Of a DNA stretch of 35,133 nucleotides, positions 1,115 to 35,133 are shown piece after piece; positions within the stretch are counted from its first letter, which is position 1, and each line of letters begins with the position of its first letter. Origin of the DNA: a virus (taxonomy: Duplodnaviria > Caudoviricetes); IMG/VR virus record IMGVR_UViG_3300032226_000124, positions 1 to 35,133 of that record. One strand, 5' to 3'. The position numbers were made by a program, and so were the translations under genes. Below the pieces are notes generated by a model. That model did not search any database and was not told the origin of the DNA. It was given only the letters and a program-made list of their open reading frames with translations.

Positions 1115-2368
1115 CTAGTAGCCTGAAACGGCATCCATTGGTGTGTAATCGTCTTCCTCATAGTCTGAGGTGTACTCCGCAATCGCTATCTGGTCGATGT
1201 AGCTTAGGGCATCAATCAAGTCATCGTGGACCTGGGGGTTAGGGAAGTTCATCAGTTCATCGATGATTTCGCTATTCCAGGGACCCTCGTTGAAGGTAAT
1301 CTTCCCGTGCTCTAGTCTGCCCTGTAAAGACCAAGTGATTCTATCTGTCTTTTTCTTGTTTCCGTGTGTGAGGTCTTCAATACGGAAGTAACTGTTATAC
1401 TTACGCATAAGATCAGACAGATAAGGTAGAACGGCATTCTTTAATGCGCCTCTTTCGATGCCAACACAAACAGGCTCATAGTCACGGACCACATCAAATA
1501 TCTTCTGTGCGGTCTGCTTAATGTCCCACCTACCGTACTCTATATCTGCAACCCACCAACCCTCAGAGGTTACCTTGACTATCGCTATGGCTGACTGGTC
1601 TAGCCTCTTCTTCTTTGCAGTGGTAGCAGCAGCGACATTTTCGAAACCAGCCAAGTCTACAGCTACAAAGTAGCGACCATCCTTAGGCTCTTCATCGTCT
1701 ATCTTGATCCACTCTTCTTTGAAGATGCCACCAGAGGCAGCCTCAAACGAAGCCATAAACTCAGTCCTAAAAGCAAAAGAGGACATAGACTTCTTTGCAG
1801 CTTCAATCTCTTTTGGGTCAAGTAGCGGGTTATCAAAGCTGGTAAAGTGCCAACTCTTGTACTCTTTATCGTCATTCTTCTCACCGTAGTTGTACAACTC
1901 ATAGAAATGGTTGCGACCCATCGGTGTACCAATAAAGAGGGCCTTGCCCTTTAAATCTGCTAGTGCCGGTCTAAGGATCTGCTCAAACACTGAAGGCTTC
2001 ATGTCTGCGTACTCATCGAGCACCACAAACTTTAATGAGACACCTCGCATTGTCTCTGGCCTATCAGCGCCCTTTAGACTGATGACAGCACCGTTGACTA
2101 ACTTAATCTGCATATTGTTGACATGGGAGGATTCAATCACTGGGTTCCCAAGTTCCAACAACGTGAGCCACATAATGTCTCTGGCTTGCCCCTGCGTTGG
2201 GGCTACATACCACACATTGCCTCTGTCAGCCTGCAGTGCTTCTACAATGAGCATCCATGCAGCTAACCTAGACTTACCTGTTCTACGGCCTGCTGCGACC
2301 ACCTTAAACCTGCTCTGGTCATTCCACACCTGTTGCTGCCAAGGCAGTAGCTTAATGTCCAGATTCAT
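1115..2368 (-). CDS. terL: Terminase large subunit
   Basis: Walker A AGRRTGKS, Walker B VVLDE, GTP coupling motif, RNase H-like nuclease residues (AVDLAG, HDDLIDA). Confidence 0.96.
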   Translation of the reverse strand: MNLDIKLLPWQQQVWNDQSRFKVVAAGRRTGKSRLAAWMLIVEALQADRGNVWYVAPTQGQARDIMWLTLLELGNPVIESSHVNNMQIKLVNGAVISLKGADRPETMRGVSLKFVVLDEYADMKPSVFEQILRPALADLKGKALFIGTPMGRNHFYELYNYGEKNDDKEYKSWHFTSFDNPLLDPKEIEAAKKSMSSFAFRTEFMASFEAASGGIFKEEWIKIDDEEPKDGRYFVAVDLAGFENVAAATTAKKKRLDQSAIAIVKVTSEGWWVADIEYGRWDIKQTAQKIFDVVRDYEPVCVGIERGALKNAVLPYLSDLMRKYNSYFRIEDLTHGNKKKTDRITWSLQGRLEHGKITFNEGPWNSEIIDELMNFPNPQVHDDLIDALSYIDQIAIAEYTSDYEEDDYTPMDAVSGY

Positions 2369-2807
2369 AGTCTACGTCTTCAGCATCAATGGTGTCTGCC
2401 TCTACCTTGGCATCAGTGACACCAGAAATATTAATTGTGATGCCAGCTTTGCTGGCTGCGCCGTGCTTTTCAAAATAAGACAAAGGCAACAATCTATCGG
2501 CACACATCTTTAACATCGCTGCTTGGTCTTTATCAGTAGGGTCCAAGGCTTTGTTAATAATCGTTTGGATGATCGTGTCACCCTTTGTGGTCAATAGCCT
2601 CGCATGAAATTCTCTTATGCGTGCAGCCTCACCGGGAGGTCTTCCTAACACAGCCCTCTTTTTCTTTGCCTCAATAGCTGCCTTCTTCGGACGACCTGCA
2701 CCTCTAGGGTTCTTCTTAGGTAACACAGAAACCGTATTCTGTGTAGGCATAGAAGGGGCATCGGTGGAAGAAGACACAAGAACCATATCTTGGTCTTTTG
2801 TTTCCAA
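2352..2807 (-). CDS. terS: Probable terminase small subunit
   Basis: Directly upstream of and overlapping terL. Basic GRPK/GRPP motifs, C-terminal ITINISG plus acidic tail. TTG at 2807 follows a GGAGAG RBS; the track start is 2819. Confidence 0.7.
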   Translation of the reverse strand: METKDQDMVLVSSSTDAPSMPTQNTVSVLPKKNPRGAGRPKKAAIEAKKKRAVLGRPPGEAARIREFHARLLTTKGDTIIQTIINKALDPTDKDQAAMLKMCADRLLPLSYFEKHGAASKAGITINISGVTDAKVEADTIDAEDVDYESGH

Positions 2808-2923
2808 GTTTCTCTCCAATATAGATCAGCACAGAAAACACAAAACCTAAGGTTAGTTGTTAATGTATGTTTTTTTTAAGGCACAACCTAGTACTTGTTG
2901 TCTCAGTGCTATCAATATAGAGG

Positions 2924-2952
2924 ACTATAGCACATTTTTGCTGTTTTGTCAA
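2924..2952 (-). promoter_or_regulatory. sigma70-type promoter for the terminase/portal operon
   Basis: TTGACA-17 nt-TATAGT with extended -10 TG (TGcTATAGT). Confidence 0.8.
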
Positions 2953-3064
2953 GTCCTTTTTTTATTGCCTCGATGCTGGCTCTTCAGTGCCTGCTCAGGC
3001 CTTCGCAATGCACAGATTCCAGCACTGATTTTATTGACCTTCATAGGGAGTCTTTATATAAGAC

Positions 3065-3077
3065 TAAGTCATTGATT
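3065..3077 (-). promoter_or_regulatory. IHF-binding consensus
   Basis: AATCAATGACTTA matches WATCARNNNNTTR fully, in AT-rich context. Confidence 0.55.
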
Positions 3078-3224
3078 ATATTGATCTTTATTGCTGGTTA
3101 ATTATTGACCACTTATAAGTCTATTTTGCTCTTTTTTGTATCCTCCTTTCTTGCTAATTCTGCTTTTCTTGTATCTAAGCGGGTTCAACAATATTATCTG
3201 CATTGCCACTACCCCACCCCCCGG

Positions 3225-3267
3225 CTATGTATCTATGCAGATATCCATATATGCGTCTATGCAGATA
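3225..3267. repeat. Degenerate 8-bp tandem repeat next to a C-tract
   Basis: ctatgtat ctatgcag atatccat atatgcgt ctatgcag; exact 12-mer TCTATGCAGATA at 3232 and 3256; preceded by CCCCACCCCCC (3212-3222). Confidence 0.7.
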
Positions 3268-3288
3268 CAACGATGTTGCAGTGCAATA

Positions 3289-3304
3289 TGGCATGAATCT
3301 TGCT
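3289..3304 (+). promoter_or_regulatory. sigma54 (-24/-12) promoter motif, rightward
   Basis: TGGCATG-AATC-TTGCT versus consensus TGGCACG-N4-TTGCW; GG-N10-GC spacing exact. Confidence 0.65.
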
Positions 3305-3305
3305 A

Positions 3306-3321
3306 GGCAGTTATCGTGCCA
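3306..3321 (-). promoter_or_regulatory. sigma54 (-24/-12) promoter motif, leftward
   Basis: TGGCACG-ATAA-CTGCC on the minus strand; GG-N10-GC spacing exact. Confidence 0.55.
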
Positions 3322-3394
3322 GACTATGTTGGCTATGGTGCAATGCAGTATGTGTGGCGATGTTGCACCACAGCAGACCTACCTAGACCTAAGC

Positions 3395-3411
3395 TGCACC
3401 AAAGCTGTGCA
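3395..3411. promoter_or_regulatory. NtrC-like palindromic box
   Basis: TGCACCA-AAG-CTGTGCA, 12/14 match to TGCACCA-N3-TGGTGCA. Confidence 0.5.
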
Positions 3412-3533
3412 GACTTAGAATACCTGACCAGGTTTGTCAAGATAAGGGTTTTCCCTAGTATCTTCGATGGATCTTATGCGTTAAAGTAGAGTCTGAGTTA
3501 AACAATTAAACCACTAAAGAAAGGCACTACACC

Positions 3534-3719
3534 ATGAATAAGCATCAACAGAAACAGATAGAGATTCTCAAGGCACATCTAGCCATTGGCAACATTGATT
3601 CCGTAGCCATGGGTTTATCAGCCCTAATCAGATCAGCCATGACTAAGAAACAGTCTCAGGCCTTGATGCAAGTCGCTGAAGAGTTTGGTATTATTAATCA
3701 CCCTGAGTTCATTATCTAA
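3534..3719 (+). CDS. Early hypothetical protein (61 aa)
   Basis: First ORF of the plus arm; GAAAGG RBS. Confidence 0.75.
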   Translation: MNKHQQKQIEILKAHLAIGNIDSVAMGLSALIRSAMTKKQSQALMQVAEEFGIINHPEFII

Positions 3720-3738
3720 CCTAGAAAGGCAACACACC

Positions 3739-3981
3739 ATGACAAACCCAACATTCGAGCAGTTTATTGCATCTCGCTTTGAGTCTGACGACATAGTCTC
3801 CGATGTGCCCGAATACTGTTGCAACAAGGGCACTAAGGGCTTTGTGTATGCTTCTCATGGGGCAGTAATTGAGAAGACCTCAGACGGTCAATTAATGCTT
3901 ATGATTGAAAATACTTCAGAATTATCTGATAATCTGCAAGACCTAGAATCTAAACTGTTTAACTATCTACAATTAATCTAA
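3739..3981 (+). CDS. Early hypothetical protein (80 aa)
   Basis: ATG 3739 after GAAAGG; acidic protein. Confidence 0.75.
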   Translation: MTNPTFEQFIASRFESDDIVSDVPEYCCNKGTKGFVYASHGAVIEKTSDGQLMLMIENTSELSDNLQDLESKLFNYLQLI

Positions 3982-3993
3982 GGAGCAATAAAA

Positions 3994-4353
3994 ATGGAAA
4001 ACACTAAATACAATGGTTGGACAAACTACGCCACATGGCGGGTCAATCTTGAGATGTTTGACGGCATCAACCCAAGTGACTATTGGGTTATGGATGATGC
4101 AGACATTGAGTACACCTTGCCCGAATCTCTGAAAGAATGGGCAGAGTCTATAATCACGGACTACAAAACAGAGACCAATTTGGCGCAAGATTACGCTCTA
4201 GCATTTCTGTCTGATGTTAATTGGCGTGAAATCGCTCGGCATCTCATTGACGATCATTTAGAGAATTATGAGGAGAATGACGAATTGGCAACAGATGACA
4301 CTAGATCCTATGGAACACGCAACAAAGAGCAAGATTGCTCAGAGGAGGCCTAA
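3994..4353 (+). CDS. Conserved phage hypothetical protein
   Basis: AAGGAG RBS; YNGWTNYATW...VNWREIA motif pair that I recognise from phage early proteins. Confidence 0.8.
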   Translation: MENTKYNGWTNYATWRVNLEMFDGINPSDYWVMDDADIEYTLPESLKEWAESIITDYKTETNLAQDYALAFLSDVNWREIARHLIDDHLENYEENDELATDDTRSYGTRNKEQDCSEEA

Positions 4354-4355
4354 TT

Positions 4356-4532
4356 ATGAAATCATTAGACTATAAAGACTATCTCATCACCTTTGATCGT
4401 CACCATTGGGGAATTGAAGCATGGGCGATACCTGATCATGGTGAAACCATTCGCCACAAGTTTATCGGGTACACTAAAAAAGAAATGATTGATACAATGA
4501 AATCTTTAATTGAAAGCGAGACTCTAAAATGA
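4356..4532 (+). CDS. Hypothetical protein (58 aa)
   Basis: GAGGAGG RBS, ATG 4356; GYTKKE motif. Confidence 0.7.
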   Translation: MKSLDYKDYLITFDRHHWGIEAWAIPDHGETIRHKFIGYTKKEMIDTMKSLIESETLK

Positions 4533-4618
4533 CTATGTGGCAATATGCTAGTCTGGCAGCTTTATTATTTGGCTGTGCAGCCATAATCATGGTAATGAAG
4601 CCCTGGGATCTAGACTAA
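4529..4618 (+). CDS. Small hydrophobic peptide (29 aa)
   Basis: ATGA overlap with the upstream stop; MTMWQYASLAALLFGCAAIIMVMKPWDLD fills the gap exactly. Confidence 0.55.
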   Translation: MTMWQYASLAALLFGCAAIIMVMKPWDLD

Positions 4619-4637
4619 CTGAAAAGGAGTATTAAAA

Positions 4638-4823
4638 ATGACTGACGAACAAAAATCAGTAATTAGATGCGCTTATTTAGATATGCTTGGCGCTATTCAA
4701 GCGATGCGTCAATTGGATATGCACGCTCATGATTGGGAAGCCCACGAGCAGAGCATTGAAGAGATAGAGAAATACTTTCCCGATGTCATTGGATGTTTAA
4801 TTGAGGAGAATCAAAATGCCTAA
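4638..4823 (+). CDS. Hypothetical protein (61 aa)
   Basis: AAGGAG RBS; tight packing. Confidence 0.75.
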   Translation: MTDEQKSVIRCAYLDMLGAIQAMRQLDMHAHDWEAHEQSIEEIEKYFPDVIGCLIEENQNA

Positions 4824-5016
4824 ATATGAGGTTCCATTGCATTACACAGTATGGGTAAAAGTGGAAGCAGAGAATGAAAATGAGGCGTGGGATAGTGCCG
4901 GAGAATTTGGATCGGGTACGGAGTTTGAAATTAAAACTAAGTATTTGGTTAAAGAGGGATCTCCCGAAATAACTTTTACTGATACAGGAACACCCATGAC
5001 TATTGAGGAGAATCAA
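4800..5016 (+). repeat. Exact 15-bp direct repeat ATTGAGGAGAATCAA flanking one gene
   Basis: Copies at 4800-4814 and 5002-5016; each contains the RBS of the next gene. Confidence 0.85.
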
Positions 5017-5022
5017 CAATGA
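4816..5022 (+). CDS. Hypothetical protein (68 aa)
   Basis: GAGGAG RBS, ATG 4816; VEAENENEA motif common in small phage proteins. Confidence 0.75.
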   Translation: MPKYEVPLHYTVWVKVEAENENEAWDSAGEFGSGTEFEIKTKYLVKEGSPEITFTDTGTPMTIEENQQ

Positions 5023-5342
5023 AGCACAAACAATGCAACGCAGATCAAACAAACATGAGCAGTCTTAGAGGCTATGTCAACGCCACATATGACGAATTGT
5101 GTCGCTGTTTTGGTGCGCCAACGGTCTTTATTGGCGATAAGACCAATGCAGAATGGTTCATAGAATTCGAAGACGGTTCCGTCGCCACAGTCTATGATTG
5201 GAAGCTAGACCATATCCCTTTAGGGCCTTATCGATGGCACATTGGCGGGTTTGATGCCTACGCTGTTGCATCTGTCCACGAGGCCATGATAGAATCAAGA
5301 CTGTCTAACTTTACAGAAAAGCAGAGGGCACTATGTTACTAA
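5019..5342 (+). CDS. Conserved phage hypothetical protein (107 aa)
   Basis: GAGGAG RBS; FGAP..GDKT..EW..ATVYDWK..WHIGG pattern. Confidence 0.8.
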   Translation: MKHKQCNADQTNMSSLRGYVNATYDELCRCFGAPTVFIGDKTNAEWFIEFEDGSVATVYDWKLDHIPLGPYRWHIGGFDAYAVASVHEAMIESRLSNFTEKQRALCY

Positions 5343-5569
5343 CTAATAAAGAAGTAGTGGATATCCTAGACGACAGGCTAGATTACAGCGATTTTGGGAA
5401 TTGGTACGGCGATGAAGATGCATTGATCGAATTTGCCTACCATATCGTCAAAGCAGAGGATCAAAAAAGACTCCAATTAGCATATGAAAAGGATTTATTA
5501 AGAGATACCTATTTCAGCGAATCAATGGAAGCCTTTGATGCTCTATGTCTTAAAAAGGTGACACCATGA
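5333..5569 (+). CDS. Hypothetical protein (78 aa)
   Basis: Overlapping and coupled ORF with GAGGG RBS. Confidence 0.7.
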   Translation: MLLTNKEVVDILDDRLDYSDFGNWYGDEDALIEFAYHIVKAEDQKRLQLAYEKDLLRDTYFSESMEAFDALCLKKVTP

Positions 5570-5817
5570 GATGCCGGTCATGTAATGAGGCTTTAACCGA
5601 TTATGAGACCACGATCAGATCAGTTTACACCAGGGACTATCTCTCTATGTGCAAACAGTGCTTAAAATCGATTAAAACAGACCTTGTAGCCGTTGGTAAT
5701 GTTTCCTTGATGTCTGAGGCAGACGAAACAGACGAAGGCACAGAGAGCGATTTAGACCCATTAGCGGGTAATTTCGATATTGAGGACTATTCTGATGACC
5801 AATGGAGGGACAGATGA
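5566..5817 (+). CDS. Zn-finger-like protein with acidic tail
   Basis: CRSC...CKQC followed by a D/E-rich C-terminus. Confidence 0.75.
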   Translation: MRCRSCNEALTDYETTIRSVYTRDYLSMCKQCLKSIKTDLVAVGNVSLMSEADETDEGTESDLDPLAGNFDIEDYSDDQWRDR

Positions 5818-6404
5818 GGGTTTTAATTGCCTGTGAGTTTAGCGGGACTGTCAGAGATGCCTTTATTGCTAAAGGACATGATGCTATGTCTTGCGATTTA
5901 GAGCCAACAGAAAGCCCTGGCCCACACTATCAAGGTGATGTTTTTGATATAATCAACGATGGTTGGGATCTTATGATTGCTCACCCGCCATGTACACATC
6001 TTGCCGTTAGTGGTGCTAGGCACTTTGCCAAAAAGAGGCAAGACGGAAGACAACAACAAGGCATTGACTTCTTTATGGCTTTGGCTAATTGTGGTATTCC
6101 TAAGTATGCTATAGAAAACCCTATTGGGATCATGTCTAGTATTCACAGAAAGCCTGACCAGATTGTTCAGCCTTGGGAATACGGGCACAAGACAACAAAA
6201 GCCACTTGTTTATGGCTTAGGGGCTTGCCTTTGTTGAAGCCAACAAACATTGTTGAAAAAGGTGAGTTTGTTGTGTTCCCTAGTGGTAAGCGAATGTCTA
6301 AGTGGTATGCAGACTCAGCTAAAAACTCGCCAAAGGAACGGGAACGCATTCGTAATAAAACATTCCAGGGCATAGCAGACGCTATGGCAGAGCAGTGGGG
6401 ATAA
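5814..6404 (+). CDS. Short phage DNA cytosine-C5 methyltransferase-like protein
   Basis: Motif I-like VLIACEFSG, catalytic HPPC, ENP motif, QPWEYGH..K.TCLW; GGAGG RBS. Confidence 0.75.
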   Translation: MRVLIACEFSGTVRDAFIAKGHDAMSCDLEPTESPGPHYQGDVFDIINDGWDLMIAHPPCTHLAVSGARHFAKKRQDGRQQQGIDFFMALANCGIPKYAIENPIGIMSSIHRKPDQIVQPWEYGHKTTKATCLWLRGLPLLKPTNIVEKGEFVVFPSGKRMSKWYADSAKNSPKERERIRNKTFQGIADAMAEQWG

Positions 6405-6405
6405 G

Positions 6406-6422
6406 CTGGCACGATTCTTGCT
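6406..6422 (+). promoter_or_regulatory. sigma54 promoter motif upstream of the replication genes
   Basis: CTGGCACG-ATTC-TTGCT, a perfect match to YTGGCACG-N4-TTGCW, in an intergenic gap and oriented with the downstream genes. Confidence 0.75.
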
Positions 6423-6513
6423 ATTAAAGACTATATTGACTAAATAGTCTATTATGAAAGAATATTTTAAAATCTTTACTCTATAGAGAGACAATAAAGA
6501 AAGGTAGCACTCA

Positions 6514-6729
6514 ATGGAAAATGATGATCTAGAAAGAATTTATTGGTTTTGTGTTTCTGATTGTGTTGATCTTTTGGCTCATGGCTCTACTGACATTGAG
6601 ACCTTGTTAAACGATGTCTACGAAGCCCTGAAGCGCACTAAGCCAGAATCTGGTACTTGTGTTGCCCTTTTGGCAATCATTGACCGATTGGCAGAGGAAA
6701 GGACTAGGATCAATGCTAACTCAATCTAA
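6514..6729 (+). CDS. Hypothetical protein (71 aa)
   Basis: GAAAGG RBS; overlaps the primase start. Confidence 0.65.
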   Translation: MENDDLERIYWFCVSDCVDLLAHGSTDIETLLNDVYEALKRTKPESGTCVALLAIIDRLAEERTRINANSI

Positions 6730-8335
6730 AAACAGGTTTGTAAGGCATACTGAGTGCCCTGATTGTGGCTCTAGTGACGGCAGGGCAGTCTATTCCGATG
6801 ACAGCACTTATTGTTTTGTGTGCCACAAAGCCTCTAAAACGCTCTCAGAGGGCTTCTCTGACCAAGGAAGGGGTAAGGTACTACCTATGACTCAAAAACC
6901 TGTTGTAGAGCCTCTAAAGGGCATTAGCGGTCAATTCCTAAGCATACCTGAGAGGGGTATCACAAAAGCCACTTGTGAGGCTTATGGTGTCAGACAATCA
7001 GGGACAGAACATTATTATCCTTACTGTGATGACCGAGGTACTGAGGTGGCTTTCAAGGTCAGATCAGTGGCTGACAAGCAATTCAGGTCTCAGGGCAACA
7101 TTAAAGAGGCTACCTTGTTCGGGCAGAATCGTTACCCTGCCGGTGGTAAATATCTGACCATCTGCGAGGGCGAATTAGATGCCTTGGCGGCTTTTCAGAT
7201 GACAGGCTCTCTTTATCCTGTGGTGTCAATCAAGAATGGGGCACAGTCGGCTGTAAAGGACTGCCAAGCACAGTTTGAGTACATCGATTCATTCGAGACT
7301 GTGGTGCTTGCCTTTGATGCTGATGAACCCGGACAAGAAGCAGCCCTAGCCGTTGCTGACCTGTTTGGCAGTAAGGTAAAGATCATGAAGATGTCTAAGC
7401 CCTACAAAGATGCCTGCGATTATCTGAAGGACAACAAATCTGCTGACTTTGTGAAGGCATGGTGGGCAGCAGAGACCTATGTGCCTGATGGCATTGTTGC
7501 TGGCTCTGAGTTGTTTGAGTTAGTGATGCAGCCACTGCCAAAGGCTCAGGCGCACTATCCCTATGCTGGCTTAAACGACATGACCGGCGGTATCAGACAG
7601 CAAGAGATGGTTGTGGTCACTGCCGGCTCAGGTCTTGGTAAGTCGCAGTTTATCAGGGAAGTGATTTGGCAATTGCTCTGTGAGACCAAGGACAACATCG
7701 GGATTATGTTCTTGGAAGAGTCGGTCAAGCGGACAGCCTTGTCTCTGATGTCGCTAGCGATCAATAAGCCACTGCACTTGGCAGAAACTGAGGCCACTGA
7801 AGCATCTAAGAAGGAAGCCTTTGATAAGACCCTAGGCTCTAATCGGCTGTTCTTCTATGACTGTTTCGGTAGCACAGCAATCGATAACATCATCAATCGG
7901 GTTCGATACTTCACCAAAGGCTTAGACTGCAAGTACATCCTGCTAGACCATGTGTCTATCGTGGTGTCTGCTCAGGATCATGGTGACGAGCGCAAGGCAA
8001 TCGATGAGATCATGACTAAACTTCGGATGATTGTGCAGGAAACAGGGGTTGCCTTGTTTGTGGTGTCTCACCTACGCAGGCCAGAGGGTAAAGGCCATGA
8101 AGAGGGCGCAGCCACTAGTCTGTCCCAATTAAGGGGTTCAGCAAGTATTGGACAATTGGCTGATATGGTGCTAGGATTAGAAAGGTCAGCACAGCATGAA
8201 GACCCTATCGAGCGTAATACCACTAGGGTCAGGGTTATTAAGAACCGATACAGCGGAGAGACCGGCAAAGCCTGTGCAGTCCTGTATGACAAGCACACAG
8301 GCCGTATGAACGAGATTAACGAGGAGGCACTATGA
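6713..8335 (+). CDS. T7 gp4-like DNA primase-helicase
   Basis: Zn-binding CPDC...CFVC, TOPRIM EGELD and FDAD, SF4 helicase AGSGLGKS, LDH, LRGS, KNR. Likely start ATG 6713. Confidence 0.96.
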   Translation: MLTQSKNRFVRHTECPDCGSSDGRAVYSDDSTYCFVCHKASKTLSEGFSDQGRGKVLPMTQKPVVEPLKGISGQFLSIPERGITKATCEAYGVRQSGTEHYYPYCDDRGTEVAFKVRSVADKQFRSQGNIKEATLFGQNRYPAGGKYLTICEGELDALAAFQMTGSLYPVVSIKNGAQSAVKDCQAQFEYIDSFETVVLAFDADEPGQEAALAVADLFGSKVKIMKMSKPYKDACDYLKDNKSADFVKAWWAAETYVPDGIVAGSELFELVMQPLPKAQAHYPYAGLNDMTGGIRQQEMVVVTAGSGLGKSQFIREVIWQLLCETKDNIGIMFLEESVKRTALSLMSLAINKPLHLAETEATEASKKEAFDKTLGSNRLFFYDCFGSTAIDNIINRVRYFTKGLDCKYILLDHVSIVVSAQDHGDERKAIDEIMTKLRMIVQETGVALFVVSHLRRPEGKGHEEGAATSLSQLRGSASIGQLADMVLGLERSAQHEDPIERNTTRVRVIKNRYSGETGKACAVLYDKHTGRMNEINEEAL

Positions 8336-14501: not shown

Positions 14502-14736
14502 AACATTAGCGGACTACATAAAGGCTAGGCAGATTGGTGGAAACCATTACAAGACACAGATCCAGCCTTGGGATGTCTTCCTAGATTGGCAGATGGACCC
14601 TTGGCTGTGTAATGTGATTAAGTATGTTCAGCGTCACGCTAAGAAGAACGGCAAAGAGGACCTTGAGAAGGCAAAACACTATCTTGAGTACGCTATCGAA
14701 AACTACGACAAGATAAAGGCTGTGTATTACAAATGA
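14485..14736 (+). CDS. DUF3310 (T7 gp1.7/SaV-like) protein
   Basis: QIGGNHY, NVIKYV.R..KKNG.EDL.KA.HY. Confidence 0.82.
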   Translation: MSQQLETLADYIKARQIGGNHYKTQIQPWDVFLDWQMDPWLCNVIKYVQRHAKKNGKEDLEKAKHYLEYAIENYDKIKAVYYK

Positions 14737-15641
14737 GTCAGCGTGATCTTGATAGGGCCTATGGTCTACTAAAAGAGGCTCAGTGGAGTAAGGGATTTAA
14801 CCTATATGAGTGCCGTGAGATTCGTAAGGTTAAGTTTGCCCTTGGAATGAAGACACCGCTGTCTAGGTCCATCATCTGGGAGCCAGGGTATGATGTTAGA
14901 GATAGACACCTGATAGTCACTAACGAGCAAGGCGTTGGCGACACAATCATGTTCTCTAGGTTCATACCTCTGCTTAAGAAGCTGCCAGTAAAGTCTGTTA
15001 GTGTCTATATGCAAAAGCCACTGATGAACCTGATAGCCTCGCTCGCTGGTGTCGATGGTGTCTTAACTGATGAGAACTGCCAAGTACCGGCAATGCGGGT
15101 CAAGGTGATGTCTATACCGGCTCTGTTGCTACAGTACAATGTGTTTCCTATGGACGATGGAGGCCCTGTCTATGGCAGTGCTGGCTACTTCAAGTTTAAA
15201 GGTGTTAAGAAGACTAGCCAGATAGGGTTTTGCTGGTACAGCGACAATGATTCATGGAACGCTAGTGCCAAAGTTATTCCTAGAAACTTAGCAGAAAAGT
15301 TCTATAATCAGTTGACAAAGAAGCACAAAGTGGTATCATTACAGATTCAGCCTGACTTTATGCCAGAGCACTTGGATGGTAGAAGTTGGCTTGAAACGGC
15401 TAAGAAGATACAGTCATTGAAGGCAGTCGTAACTGTTGACACTGGTGTAGCGCACTTAGCAGGAGCACTTGGGGTAAGGACATTGAACTTGGTTGGCTCT
15501 GCATCAAAGACAGGATGGTTTTACCTGCCTACTGATACAGACAAGACTACATGGTATGACTCAGTGGAACTTATACGTTATGAACCTTATACTAACTGGG
15601 AGGCAGGGCTTGATGAAGCACTGAAAAGATTATGTCGTTGA
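14733..15641 (+). CDS. GT-B glycosyltransferase (GT9-like)
   Basis: EQGVGDTIMFSRF and VTVDTGVAHLAGALG motifs. Confidence 0.82.
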   Translation: MSQRDLDRAYGLLKEAQWSKGFNLYECREIRKVKFALGMKTPLSRSIIWEPGYDVRDRHLIVTNEQGVGDTIMFSRFIPLLKKLPVKSVSVYMQKPLMNLIASLAGVDGVLTDENCQVPAMRVKVMSIPALLLQYNVFPMDDGGPVYGSAGYFKFKGVKKTSQIGFCWYSDNDSWNASAKVIPRNLAEKFYNQLTKKHKVVSLQIQPDFMPEHLDGRSWLETAKKIQSLKAVVTVDTGVAHLAGALGVRTLNLVGSASKTGWFYLPTDTDKTTWYDSVELIRYEPYTNWEAGLDEALKRLCR

Positions 15642-28134: not shown

Positions 28135-28707
28135 CTATCTCCACTTAGGTCCTTCCATCCAGGCTACTAGCGAGTGTCTAGTGCCCTTGGTTACGGGGTT
28201 TACCTTATGAACTACAAAGGATGGAAACACTAAAACAGTTCCTTGTGTCTTAAGGTGTTCTTGTTTAGGGGCGCTGAGATGTAACGGCTGCATCTCAAAC
28301 TCCCCACCTTCATACTCTTCTGGGCTAGACAGTTGGCACACCAGAGATAACTTCCTGTGTACTTGTCTGCCATCATCCCAGTTTACATCATTGTGCCAAT
28401 TATAATAACCTTGGTCTTCTGCGTTGTACTCTGTAAACTGAATCTCATTTAAGTGCCACAACTCAGATCCAAAGGCATTATGATTGGCAATATGAAACAA
28501 ATTAGTTAGTTCGTGGTATAGCCAACCAAGGTCTTTATTGTCTCTATTGATCCATCTAACCTTACTTCTACGAATCTTGGTGTCTACATTAGAGCCTTGA
28601 AAACCTATTACTGCGTCCTGCGGTTCTATCTCTTTTGCTTGTTCTATTATAGTGCTACAAAGTTCTTTAGGATACCTCTGCTGCCACATCTGCCACATTG
28701 CGTTCAT
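28135..28707 (-). CDS. 2OG-Fe(II) dioxygenase (prolyl-hydroxylase/PKHD-like)
   Basis: HxD (WHND), RKLS, YEGG, FPS..H.V.PV..G.R.SLV.W. Confidence 0.9.
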   Translation of the reverse strand: MNAMWQMWQQRYPKELCSTIIEQAKEIEPQDAVIGFQGSNVDTKIRRSKVRWINRDNKDLGWLYHELTNLFHIANHNAFGSELWHLNEIQFTEYNAEDQGYYNWHNDVNWDDGRQVHRKLSLVCQLSSPEEYEGGEFEMQPLHLSAPKQEHLKTQGTVLVFPSFVVHKVNPVTKGTRHSLVAWMEGPKWR

Positions 28708-30397: not shown

Positions 30398-31300
30398 TTA
30401 ACCTCCGAATACAATAGCCATAGCTATCGCTTTACCTGTTTGAAATGTTCCTGCTGGACCAGTCGGCCCTGTAGGTCCTGTCGGTCCAGTAGGCCCTGTT
30501 GGACCAGTTGGGCCGGTAGCACCAGCGGGACCAGTAGGTCCTGTCGGTCCAGTTGGTATAGTAAAGTCAAAGACTGCCGCAGAAGACGAGCCGCTATTAG
30601 TTACAGAAGCACTGCCACCAGCAGGGCCGGTAGTCGTAGTTCCAACAGCAATTGTTGCTGCTGTTCCTGTTGGCCCTGTCGGTCCGGGAGCACCAGTGGG
30701 TCCTGTTGTACCTGTAGGTCCTGTCGGCCCAGTAGGGCCTGTTGGGCCCGTCGGTATAGTAAAGTCAAAGACTGCGGCTGAAGAGGAACCACTGTTGGTT
30801 ACAGAGGCGCTACCGCCAGCAGGGCCTGTAGTGGTGGTGCCAACAGCAATCGTAGCTGCTGCTCCAGACGGACCTGTTGGGCCAGTAGGACCTGTGGGTC
30901 CAGTCGGGCCTGTAGGGCCGGGAGAGCCTGTAGAGCCGGTAGGGCCAGCCGGGCCAGTCGGTCCAGTTGGGCCAGTTGGTCCAGTAGAGCCTGTAGGACC
31001 TACCGGGCCAGGAGAACCAGTAGGACCAGTCGGGCCTGTTGGACCAGTAGTGCCATTAGGAATACCAAAGGACAGCGATACTGTCGTAGAGTTATATGCT
31101 ACAGTCGGCGTTGAGCCAGCAGGCAACGAAGAAGCCGCTACATCTAAATCAGTTGTAAAGTTAATTGTACTCTGAGCAGATGCCGCCGCCGCAGCAGCAC
31201 TCGCAGCAGACTGGTTAGCATAAGTAAGTGCTAACTGTGCTGTGTTTGCTTGATCGGCTGTTGCATCACCGGGACCACCGGGACCACGATATATCGCCAT
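30398..31300 (-). CDS. Collagen-like tail fibre protein
   Basis: Three (Gly-Pro-Thr)n-dominated tracts separated by a duplicated beta module; ends [11 protein letters not shown]. Confidence 0.88.
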
Positions 31301-34344: not shown

Positions 34345-34373
34345 ATTCTACCACACTTTTCTTATTTTGTCAA
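34345..34373 (-). promoter_or_regulatory. sigma70-type promoter for the head operon
   Basis: TTGACA-17 nt-TAGAAT with extended -10 TG. Confidence 0.82.
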
Positions 34374-34401
34374 GCACTTTTTACCGCTTTTGTCAAGTTT
34401 T

Positions 34402-35133
34402 TTATTTTTGACGGGCAGCAACGACCTGAAGGTTAGCAATTTCCTTCTTAGTGTCAATATCTTTCTCTTTTAGTGCCAGATTTGCTACTTTTATACGTCT
34501 TTCAAACTCTGCGGTGGGGTTATTAGAGTCTGAGAGGTACTTAGAGGCGCTAGCAGCCAGCGAAGCCTGCAATTCTGCTGGTTTCAACTGCGTATCTACA
34601 GCCTCTGCCTGTGCTTTGGTCTGGTTTAGGAGCACTTCAGACTCAAGTTTGGCGTTTTGTAGCTGTGCATTCTGCATTTGTAGCTGCTGAACCATCTGTT
34701 GAGCCTGCTGTGCTTCAGGATTGGGCTGCGACATCTGATCCATCTGTGCAACAATCTGCTCACGGTTGTTCAAACCGCTGTTTTCGATGATGGCTCTGAG
34801 CACAATTGGCACAACAGGGCTATCTGGACCCAAGGTTTTGAGTAGATTCATAAACTGCATCTGCTCATACTCACGGGCGATGATGCCTAGATTGCTAGAA
34901 GCAATGAAATTGAAGTCCTGTGCAGGGTAGTTCTCTGGATCAAACTGCATAAACCGATAAGCAGACTTCTTTACAAACGGGATCAGGAACTGCTCTTGGA
35001 AGTTAACTAGGGTTCTCTTATTCTTCTTAATAATGGCTGAGAGGCCAGCGCTCATGCCAGCACCATCTGCTGTGGTGGGAGCAGGCATAGTCGAACTATC
35101 TACCGTGCCAGTAGCCATCAGCATCATCCGCAT
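34402..35133 (-). CDS. Portal protein, C-terminal part (truncated at the right edge)
   Basis: ATGTVDS...KRTLVNFQE.FLIP...QFDPE.YP...LGIIAREYE, with a Gln-rich coiled-coil tail; complements 1-1106. Confidence 0.9.
   Translation of the reverse strand: MRMMLMATGTVDSSTMPAPTTADGAGMSAGLSAIIKKNKRTLVNFQEQFLIPFVKKSAYRFMQFDPENYPAQDFNFIASSNLGIIAREYEQMQFMNLLKTLGPDSPVVPIVLRAIIENSGLNNREQIVAQMDQMSQPNPEAQQAQQMVQQLQMQNAQLQNAKLESEVLLNQTKAQAEAVDTQLKPAELQASLAASASKYLSDSNNPTAEFERRIKVANLALKEKDIDTKKEIANLQVVAARQK

Follow-up and report, generated by a model that had tools for sequence, protein, structure and literature searches.

Face-to-face sigma54-type sites in a hypervariable array of host-protein-type boxes between the terminase and early arms of a freshwater phage genome

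The non-coding ends of phage genomes are usually viewed as the location of packaging signals and early promoters. Sites for host proteins are also known from lytic phages, as for example the Spo0A boxes and Spo0J-dependent spore entrapment of phi29 and the CtrA sites of phages of the Alphaproteobacteria (PMC9437464). These cases, as that source presents them, include a segregation protein, and their regulator sites are linked to promoters and serve one regulator, whereas near-identical genomes differ in their set of regulators at the locus described here, and sigma54 holoenzyme is among the set. The pairs of DnaA boxes at the injection stop of phage T5 (bioRxiv 10.1101/866236) likewise place host-protein boxes in non-coding DNA that enters the cell early, and are proposed in that account to act on DNA entry and not on transcription, in a model that is itself hypothetical. 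T5 differs in having a conserved layout, a single protein and a long terminal repeat, whereas the boxes of many proteins are swapped here within ~250 bp.

The phage sites share with the bacterial RpoN promoters and silent sites described in PMC8743547 and PMC4591121 the TGGCAC..TTGC consensus, the GG-N10-GC spacing and the presence of NtrC-like and IHF-like boxes nearby, and occupancy without transcription is, according to these reports, common in bacteria. They differ from the bacterial sites in forming face-to-face pairs 3-8 bp apart, a pattern found in only 1 of 299 bacterial genomes of the class containing Vibrio, and in lying in an array that has no fixed enhancer-IHF-promoter order and in which number and direction vary among close relatives. 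The Zobellviridae two-arm podoviruses, which have short terminal repeats and are represented by VpV262, are alike in having arms on opposite strands, no RNA polymerase that could be found, the terminase near the junction and, in VpV262, face-to-face sigma54-like pairs just inside the left end; the likeness is one of gene order, and the phage described here differs from VpV262-type phages in that its TerL, capsid and primase matches among cultured phages are all less than 60% identical. A literature search to which subscription journals were mostly closed found no account of phage ends with sigma54 pairs or with mixed arrays of host boxes. What is new here is the swapping of alleles among near-identical phages, together with an exchange of sigma70 for sigma54 sites ahead of the primase gene.

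Setting and geometry of the sigma54-type pair

The window, by which we mean the whole stretch of DNA that was analysed, is an entire virus record of 35,133 bases (95% complete) from a freshwater habitat, and is classed as linear without end repeats. A replication arm with primase/helicase, DNA polymerase and class II ribonucleotide reductase occupies the plus strand from position 3534, the minus strand carries the structural arm and terminase, and the pair lies between the terminase and early arms (Table 1). The genome has the two arms, family A polymerase, primase/helicase and terminase at the junction that are expected of a Zobellviridae-like two-arm phage, and its gene order is the same as that of VpV262, whose terminal repeat sits at the equivalent junction. 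There is no close cultured relative by the TerL, capsid or primase matches. Elsewhere the window carries a glycosyltransferase family 9-like gene within the replication arm (14733-15641), a 2OG-Fe(II) oxygenase gene amid the tail genes (28135-28707), a tail-fibre-type gene with collagen-like 9-bp repeats (30398-31300) and, at 34349-34405, two TTTTGTCAAG repeats that resemble the TerS promoter at 2928-2961 and are likely to be leftward sigma70-type late promoters.

Table 1. Features of the terminase/early junction and of the region ahead of the replication genes
Feature	Position	Strand	Basis or remark
Large terminase (TerL)	1115..2368	-	phrog_2, E 4.5e-48
Presumed small terminase (TerS)	2352..2819	-	By position only; no PHROG or Pfam match
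Sigma70-type promoter upstream of presumed TerS, TTGACA-17-TATAGT, extended -10	2924..2952	-	24/28 clade sequences
IHF-type box left of C-run	3065..3077	-	Similar position in sister clade
C-run, conserved DNA to its left, hypervariable array to its right	3212..3222	.	Identity drop in 9 relatives
Modular array of host-protein-type boxes before first early gene	3223..3470	.	Map of 43 distinct arrays
PhaR/PhbF box TG[N]TGC[N]3GCAA, abutting the pair	3274..3286	+	Only exact copy in the genome; motif of PMC3206438
Rightward sigma54-type (-24/-12) site, left half of pair	3289..3303	+	2 mismatches to consensus of PMC8743547
Leftward sigma54-type site, right half of pair	3307..3321	-	2 mismatches to consensus of PMC8743547
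Second PhaR/PhbF-like box	3336..3348	+	One mismatch
NtrC-like box	3395..3411	+	2 mismatches to TGCACCAnnnTGGTGCA, consensus of PMC8743547
Unassigned recurrent box CCTGA..TCAAG	within 3423..3456	.	14/43 arrays, promoter-proximal array end
Unassigned recurrent box AGGGTTTTCCCT	within 3423..3456	.	28/43 arrays, promoter-proximal array end
First early-arm gene	3534..3719	+	No family match
Single perfect sigma54-type site before replication genes	6407..6421	+	Exact match to TGGCACnnTTnTTGC; not cited in the initial annotation
AT-rich block that follows the single site and contains short inverted repeats	6423..6513	.	76% AT vs 54% genome-wide
Primase/helicase	6659..8335	+	phrog_239, E 9e-182

The pair reads TGGCATGAATCTTGC-TAG-GCAGTTATCGTGCCA across positions 3289-3321, with its -12 elements 3 bp apart. 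Each half departs at two positions from YTGGCACRN4TTGCW, which we take to be the sigma54 consensus and which was used in the scan; the consensus published for RpoN is TGGCACnnTTnTTGC (PMC8743547). Single sites with at most two mismatches number 6 in the window against 2.7 +/- 1.5 in shuffled sequences, and each half by itself is unremarkable, whereas a face-to-face pair at this threshold arose in none of 200 dinucleotide shuffles (10 of 200 when three mismatches were allowed). The initial annotation had seen here two inverted -24/-12 motifs of sigma54 type, and both the sequence and the assignment hold: each half has the -24 GG and -12 GC at 10-bp spacing, and this GG-N10-GC spacing is kept in relatives, whose arrays contain 88 sites with the right spacer and between 0 and 4 for each wrong one. 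The transcription starts that it predicted, 3315 and 3295, both follow by counting from the -12 elements, and the enhancer-binding protein that it could not recognize is also missing from our searches, which detected no sigma54 activator (PF00158) in the 95%-complete record. The gap within pairs is 3, 4 or 6 bp in relatives and 3-8 bp in a set of 150 distinct pairs.

An artefact of assembly was rejected, in that a contig from the likely source run is identical over 2680-8300 and the pair is present in a second freshwater run, in which a contig of depth 396 spans 3217-3387 and the listed differences all fall outside the pair. Contigs from RNA runs make up small shares and do not extend over the pair, a result that is uninformative on its expression. 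A hairpin or cruciform was also rejected: the spacers lack complementarity, scoring 1.53 matches of 5 over the 150 distinct pairs where shuffled partners scored 1.70, and the array at 3223..3470 has no stable fold (z -1.04). Rfam gave no match to a structured RNA in 2800-6700.

Face-to-face pairs with the correct spacing occur in an estimated ~800 IMG/VR stretches (125 among the matches listed), compared with 9 for a control pattern with spacers one base shorter, and with ~210 back-to-back and 102 tandem arrangements; all of these patterns were restricted to gaps of 2-8, and stretches are not equal to species. In some other phages the pair is repeated up to four times in tandem. A scan for terminases took in 64 of the 77 large ORFs listed, belonging to 50 of the 80 long-flanked loci; in 29 of these 50 a TerL gene lies within 4 kb of the pair, and these TerLs belong to several PHROG families. 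Of 77 contigs, 12 carry the pair no more than 500 nt from an end, where 6.2 would be expected (p 0.016), an excess that assembly breaks could also produce. The sole bacterial match, L374 (G107:C177), lies close to one end of a 1.7-kb contig that contains a repeated block, and may be a binned phage fragment; the bacterial counts exclude two unpublished genomes, G041 and G143.

Among seven cultured phages that were compared, such an array is present only in VpV262 (NC_003907.2), where six sigma54-like sites, unannotated and including two face-to-face pairs, occupy 172-347, directly after the 138-bp left repeat and hence outside it. CTGGT..ACCA-type repeats come after these sites. The divergent gap of PA11 holds a single site, and those of RIO-1, ICBM1, LUZ24 and HTVC115P (first 4-9 kb) and of CW02 (whole) are without sites. 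BLAST comparison of two arrays with cultured phages gave chance-level matches only.

Hypervariable array to the right of the C-run

Relatives were collected as 80 TerL, 80 primase and 62 C-run loci. The C-run served as an anchor in 112 sequences including the window, from which 9 that fell outside the clade in a flank test were dropped; setting aside arrays with less than 300 nt to the right of the C-run left 43 distinct arrays. These alleles were taken from assembled metagenomes; they are mutually related, and some might be chimeric. In nine relatives with TerL at least 96% identical, the 60 nt to the left of the C-run are 80-100% identical, and the 200 nt to its right are 60-71% identical, as compared with a random baseline of 60%. 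Annotated left terminal repeats of RIO-1, LUZ24 and ICBM1 contain C-runs; we infer that the C-run of the window lies at or near the left genome end. A few contigs terminate 118-168 nt to the right of the C-run.

The pair is present in 26 of the 43 arrays, beginning 18-91 nt from the C-run; the 17 without it comprise 2 with unpaired sites in both directions, 9 with leftward sites only and 6 with no site. An array may hold from 0 to 7 sigma54-type sites, and the totals are 59 leftward and 29 rightward, so that there is no conserved orientation toward a transcribed gene. One array (L038) carries seven such sites in mixed orientation within ~200 bp to the right of the C-run. Even among the nine relatives with TerL at least 96% identical, the pair is found in five and missing in four, and L003, whose TerL is 99.3% identical, has HexR-like boxes and no sigma54 site. 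The sequence of the window's pair is unique among the 26 pair-bearing arrays, and appears to resemble the common allele in reversed orientation. Several alleles coexist in single sequencing runs. Judging from these sequence comparisons, the pair is likely to be one exchangeable unit in an array of host-protein-type boxes that varies between relatives, and since near-identical relatives swap it for other boxes, it is likely to belong to a docking array and not to a gene switch.

The other boxes are equally fluid. The patterns for IHF, LexA, DnaA, HexR, Fur and parS are those that we take, from general knowledge, to be the motifs of these systems. With loose patterns, the 43 arrays contain PhaR-like boxes in 33, NtrC-like in 30, SlmA-like 12-mers in 35 and IHF-like in 15, and more rarely LexA-like (8), DnaA (5), HexR-like (5) and Fur-like (4) boxes; SlmA, DnaA and parS boxes are all missing from the array of the window itself. 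The NtrC-like boxes are variable in number, lie to the right of the pair and are missing from 13 of the 43 arrays, and they do not form the conserved upstream enhancer of a bacterial enhancer-binding protein. In a set of 38 arrays, parS-like sequences were found in 7 and DnaA boxes (10 of them) in 3, and both were absent from 170 kb of flank. No matS-like site was present in the arrays scanned. The window's array also has no strong rightward sigma70 promoter, which makes activator-dependent early transcription plausible, and the two recurrent boxes at its promoter-proximal end (3423-3441 and 3445-3456; Table 1) are possible early-promoter activator sites; a survey of 40 bacterial genomes showed no enrichment of the AGGGTTTTCCCT box (3, against 4 for the control).

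A sister clade whose TerL is 69-70% identical has retained both the C-run and the IHF box, but its arrays are filled by DnaA, parS-like, Fur-like and LexA-like boxes, with no sigma54 site. In L053, one of its members, the array to the right of the C-run is occupied by four DnaA boxes, again without a sigma54 site, and a parS-like 16-mer with at most one mismatch was observed in L043, L045, L046, L047, L051, L056 and L057; the parS 16-mer occurs in literature that also mentions parS. Near 71 pairs on other contigs, DnaA, NtrC, Fur, PhbF, SlmA-like and IHF boxes are enriched from 5- to >100-fold. For this comparison and for that of the 38 arrays with their flanks, the p values overstate the case, since coding DNA makes up most of the background and the sequences are not independent of one another. 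No enrichment was seen for LexA-like boxes near unrelated pairs (p 0.11) or for Fur-like boxes in the arrays of the clade (p 0.16).

Two of the boxes could be followed into bacteria. The PhaR-type 16-mer occurs in 47 of 149 bacterial genomes, compared with 5 for a control, and in 4 of 10 hand-picked loci it adjoins phaR/phasin, thiolase, MaoC or PhaE genes, as expected in both motif and location of a PhaR/PhbF operator. The SlmA-like box resembles GTGAGTACTCAC, the type of palindrome reported as the SlmA-binding consensus (PMC3020112), although at position 3, for which E. coli SlmA favours a purine, the base in most phage copies is T or C. The SlmA-like 14-mer is present at least twice in 6 bacterial genomes, all of which have slmA, against 32 of 149 (p 7e-5), and a sigma54 DNA-binding domain was present in 4 of 5 genomes picked for slmA and a PhaR-type box. 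A 20-mer scan of genome contigs gave 15 scattered matches with no taxon signal. The content of the array suggests that the host is a PHA-storing proteobacterium, probably one of the Burkholderiales.

Single site ahead of the replication genes

A perfect sigma54-type site precedes the replication genes at some distance from the array (Table 1). It is intergenic and faces the genes that follow. All 68 primase relatives with at least 400 nt upstream (12 of the 80 being too short) retain it with no more than one mismatch, while its left flank, which is variable coding DNA, is not kept. In the sister clade, the equivalent slot after the same zinc-finger ORF is filled in 8 of 9 loci by TTGACA-17-TACCCT with an extended -10. 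The conservation of the site, together with the sigma70 promoter in this slot of the sister clade, makes it likelier to be a true promoter than the sites of the pair, and the alternation of sigma54 and sigma70 sites implies that polymerase loading is likely to be what selection keeps. The site is likely to be a replication-gene promoter or, with the AT-rich block that follows it, a promoter-plus-AT-tract site for origin priming, an arrangement known from the origin of T7. It is also likely to be an element separate from the pair, a functional polymerase-loading site for the replication module; in L033, which has the end array, no site of this kind was seen in the stretch examined.

The 71-aa ORF that follows the site (6514-6729) is present at 70 of the 80 primase loci and absent from all 12 loci of the sister clade. 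It is a candidate partner of the sigma54 site; family and Atlas searches gave no match, and the idea that it might be a phage-encoded activator was dropped. Both clades also conserve, immediately upstream of the promoter slot, an 83-aa ORF (5566-5817 in the window) with two CxxC motifs and an acidic tail, and a DNA methyltransferase-like gene (phrog_757, 5802-6404) lies between that ORF and the site in 2 of 80 primase loci.

Possible roles of the array

The reading that we favour, to which we would give a probability of roughly 0.45, is that the pair would serve as a silent two-way dock for host sigma54 polymerase and help to coat the end that is likely to enter the cell first. The left end would enter, and sigma54 holoenzyme would settle on one half of the pair as a closed complex. 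Given the size of the footprint of sigma54 holoenzyme, two halves with -12 elements 3-7 bp apart would be mutually exclusive, with one occupant at a time, and little RNA would be expected because the DNA that each holoenzyme must melt is the site of the other half. Depending on the allele, PhaR, NtrC, SlmA, DnaA, ParB or IHF might load alongside, and the resulting protein coat would retain the end in the cytoplasm until early transcription starts, and shield it from end-attacking nucleases or sensors. The identity of the bound proteins would then matter less than that several are bound. Protein loading fits better than promoter logic with a locus in which number, direction and partners are free and in which some boxes are of the chromosome-handling kind. 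Support for the silence of such a dock comes from E. coli, where most sigma54 sites are reported to carry inactive holoenzyme (PMC4591121); the same source describes the bound holoenzyme as no roadblock to transcription, so that a docked holoenzyme would perhaps be a weak shield.

PhaR, NtrC, Fur, LexA and HexR are physiological regulators, however, and their boxes would fit a decoy or a sensing role equally well. Replicated copies of the end might titrate sigma54 holoenzyme, PhaR, SlmA, DnaA, ParB, Fur and LexA, thereby freeing the genes for storage polymers and perturbing division and replication in the host. The near-consensus quality of boxes for so many regulators and their free order and number speak for such a decoy, and the polymerase-parking or decoy option of the initial annotation is supported; decoy sites are reported to regulate E. 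coli genes (PMC7826281) and extra parS sites to slow the growth of Burkholderia (PMC4948915). We consider titration unlikely all the same, in that a decoy would not need an end position, yet the arrays occupy the terminase/early junction; the one or two sigma54 sites of a phage genome would weigh little beside the 135 host sites mapped (PMC4591121); and a pair of which one half can be occupied would waste half its capacity. That the neighbouring boxes form a panel for host proteins, as had been proposed, is supported, but sensing is one reading only of a set whose SlmA, DnaA, IHF and ParB boxes belong to chromosome handling. A sensing panel would tune the early promoter to the nitrogen, carbon-storage or stress state of the host, delaying or speeding infection as proposed for CtrA sites. 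SlmA and ParB are, to our knowledge, not promoter regulators, most sigma54 sites face away from the early genes, and near-identical phages, the alleles of which coexist in single runs, differ in box identity, order and spacing; these points make a panel distinctly unlikely in spite of the location of the array directly upstream of the early arm, the frequency of NtrC-like and IHF-like boxes, and precedents in phage CtrA, Spo0A and LexA sites (PMC9437464) and in the 'repressive promoters' described for RpoN (PMC8743547).

Explanations built around the geometry of the pair fare worse. Were it inside a direct terminal repeat, each genome end would receive one inward-firing sigma54 promoter, and the 121-bp repeat of RIO-1 does begin with a C-run like that of the window, with the short distance from C-run to pair and the contigs that end nearby pointing in the same direction; but the VpV262 sites are outside its repeat, 17 of 43 arrays are pairless, TerS has a sigma70-type promoter of its own and no activator gene was found, all of which renders this reading very unlikely. 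An inverted geometry close to the packaging genes could also come from a hairpin in the DNA or from a palindrome to which a phage protein, for example TerS, binds. Such a reading is more improbable still when the non-complementary spacers and gaps of 3-8 bp are considered along with single sites that share the consensus, one of which alternates with a sigma70 promoter, and with the occurrence of the pair beside several TerL families. The initial annotation had also offered a mutually exclusive early/late switch worked by host enhancer-binding proteins, for which there are the location between two arms, the overlapping geometry and an NtrC-like box 74 nt away. This has become scarcely credible: the pair is missing in 4 of the 9 closest relatives, as it is in many other arrays, some of them without any site (including that of L003); leftward sites outnumber rightward ones two to one, and the leftward site would likely fire off the end of the incoming genome; TerS is provided with its own promoter in 24 of 28 sequences; and the tandem copies of other phages would be needless for a binary switch.

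The silent-dock reading can be extended, as a possible but doubtful generalization, to the view that many lytic phages dress the end that is injected first as host chromosome, and that in this clade the replication promoter or origin has passed from sigma70 to sigma54 with no recognizable activator encoded by the phage. The dressing cassette would consist of fast-evolving, swappable sites (self-locking sigma54 pairs and boxes for PhaR, NtrC, SlmA, DnaA, ParB and IHF), and would be a gene-free device for entry and counter-defence. The presence of the pair in hundreds of viral contigs and in VpV262, a cultured phage whose ends are mapped, makes the role of a silent sigma54 holoenzyme on phage DNA directly testable, and the sigma70-to-sigma54 swap before the primase gene poses a second testable question, namely how a sigma54 site could be fired or otherwise used by a phage for which no activator is known. 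A 250-bp hypervariable cassette of host-protein boxes, the content of which also points to the host group, would constitute a gene-free layer of the interaction between phages and their hosts.
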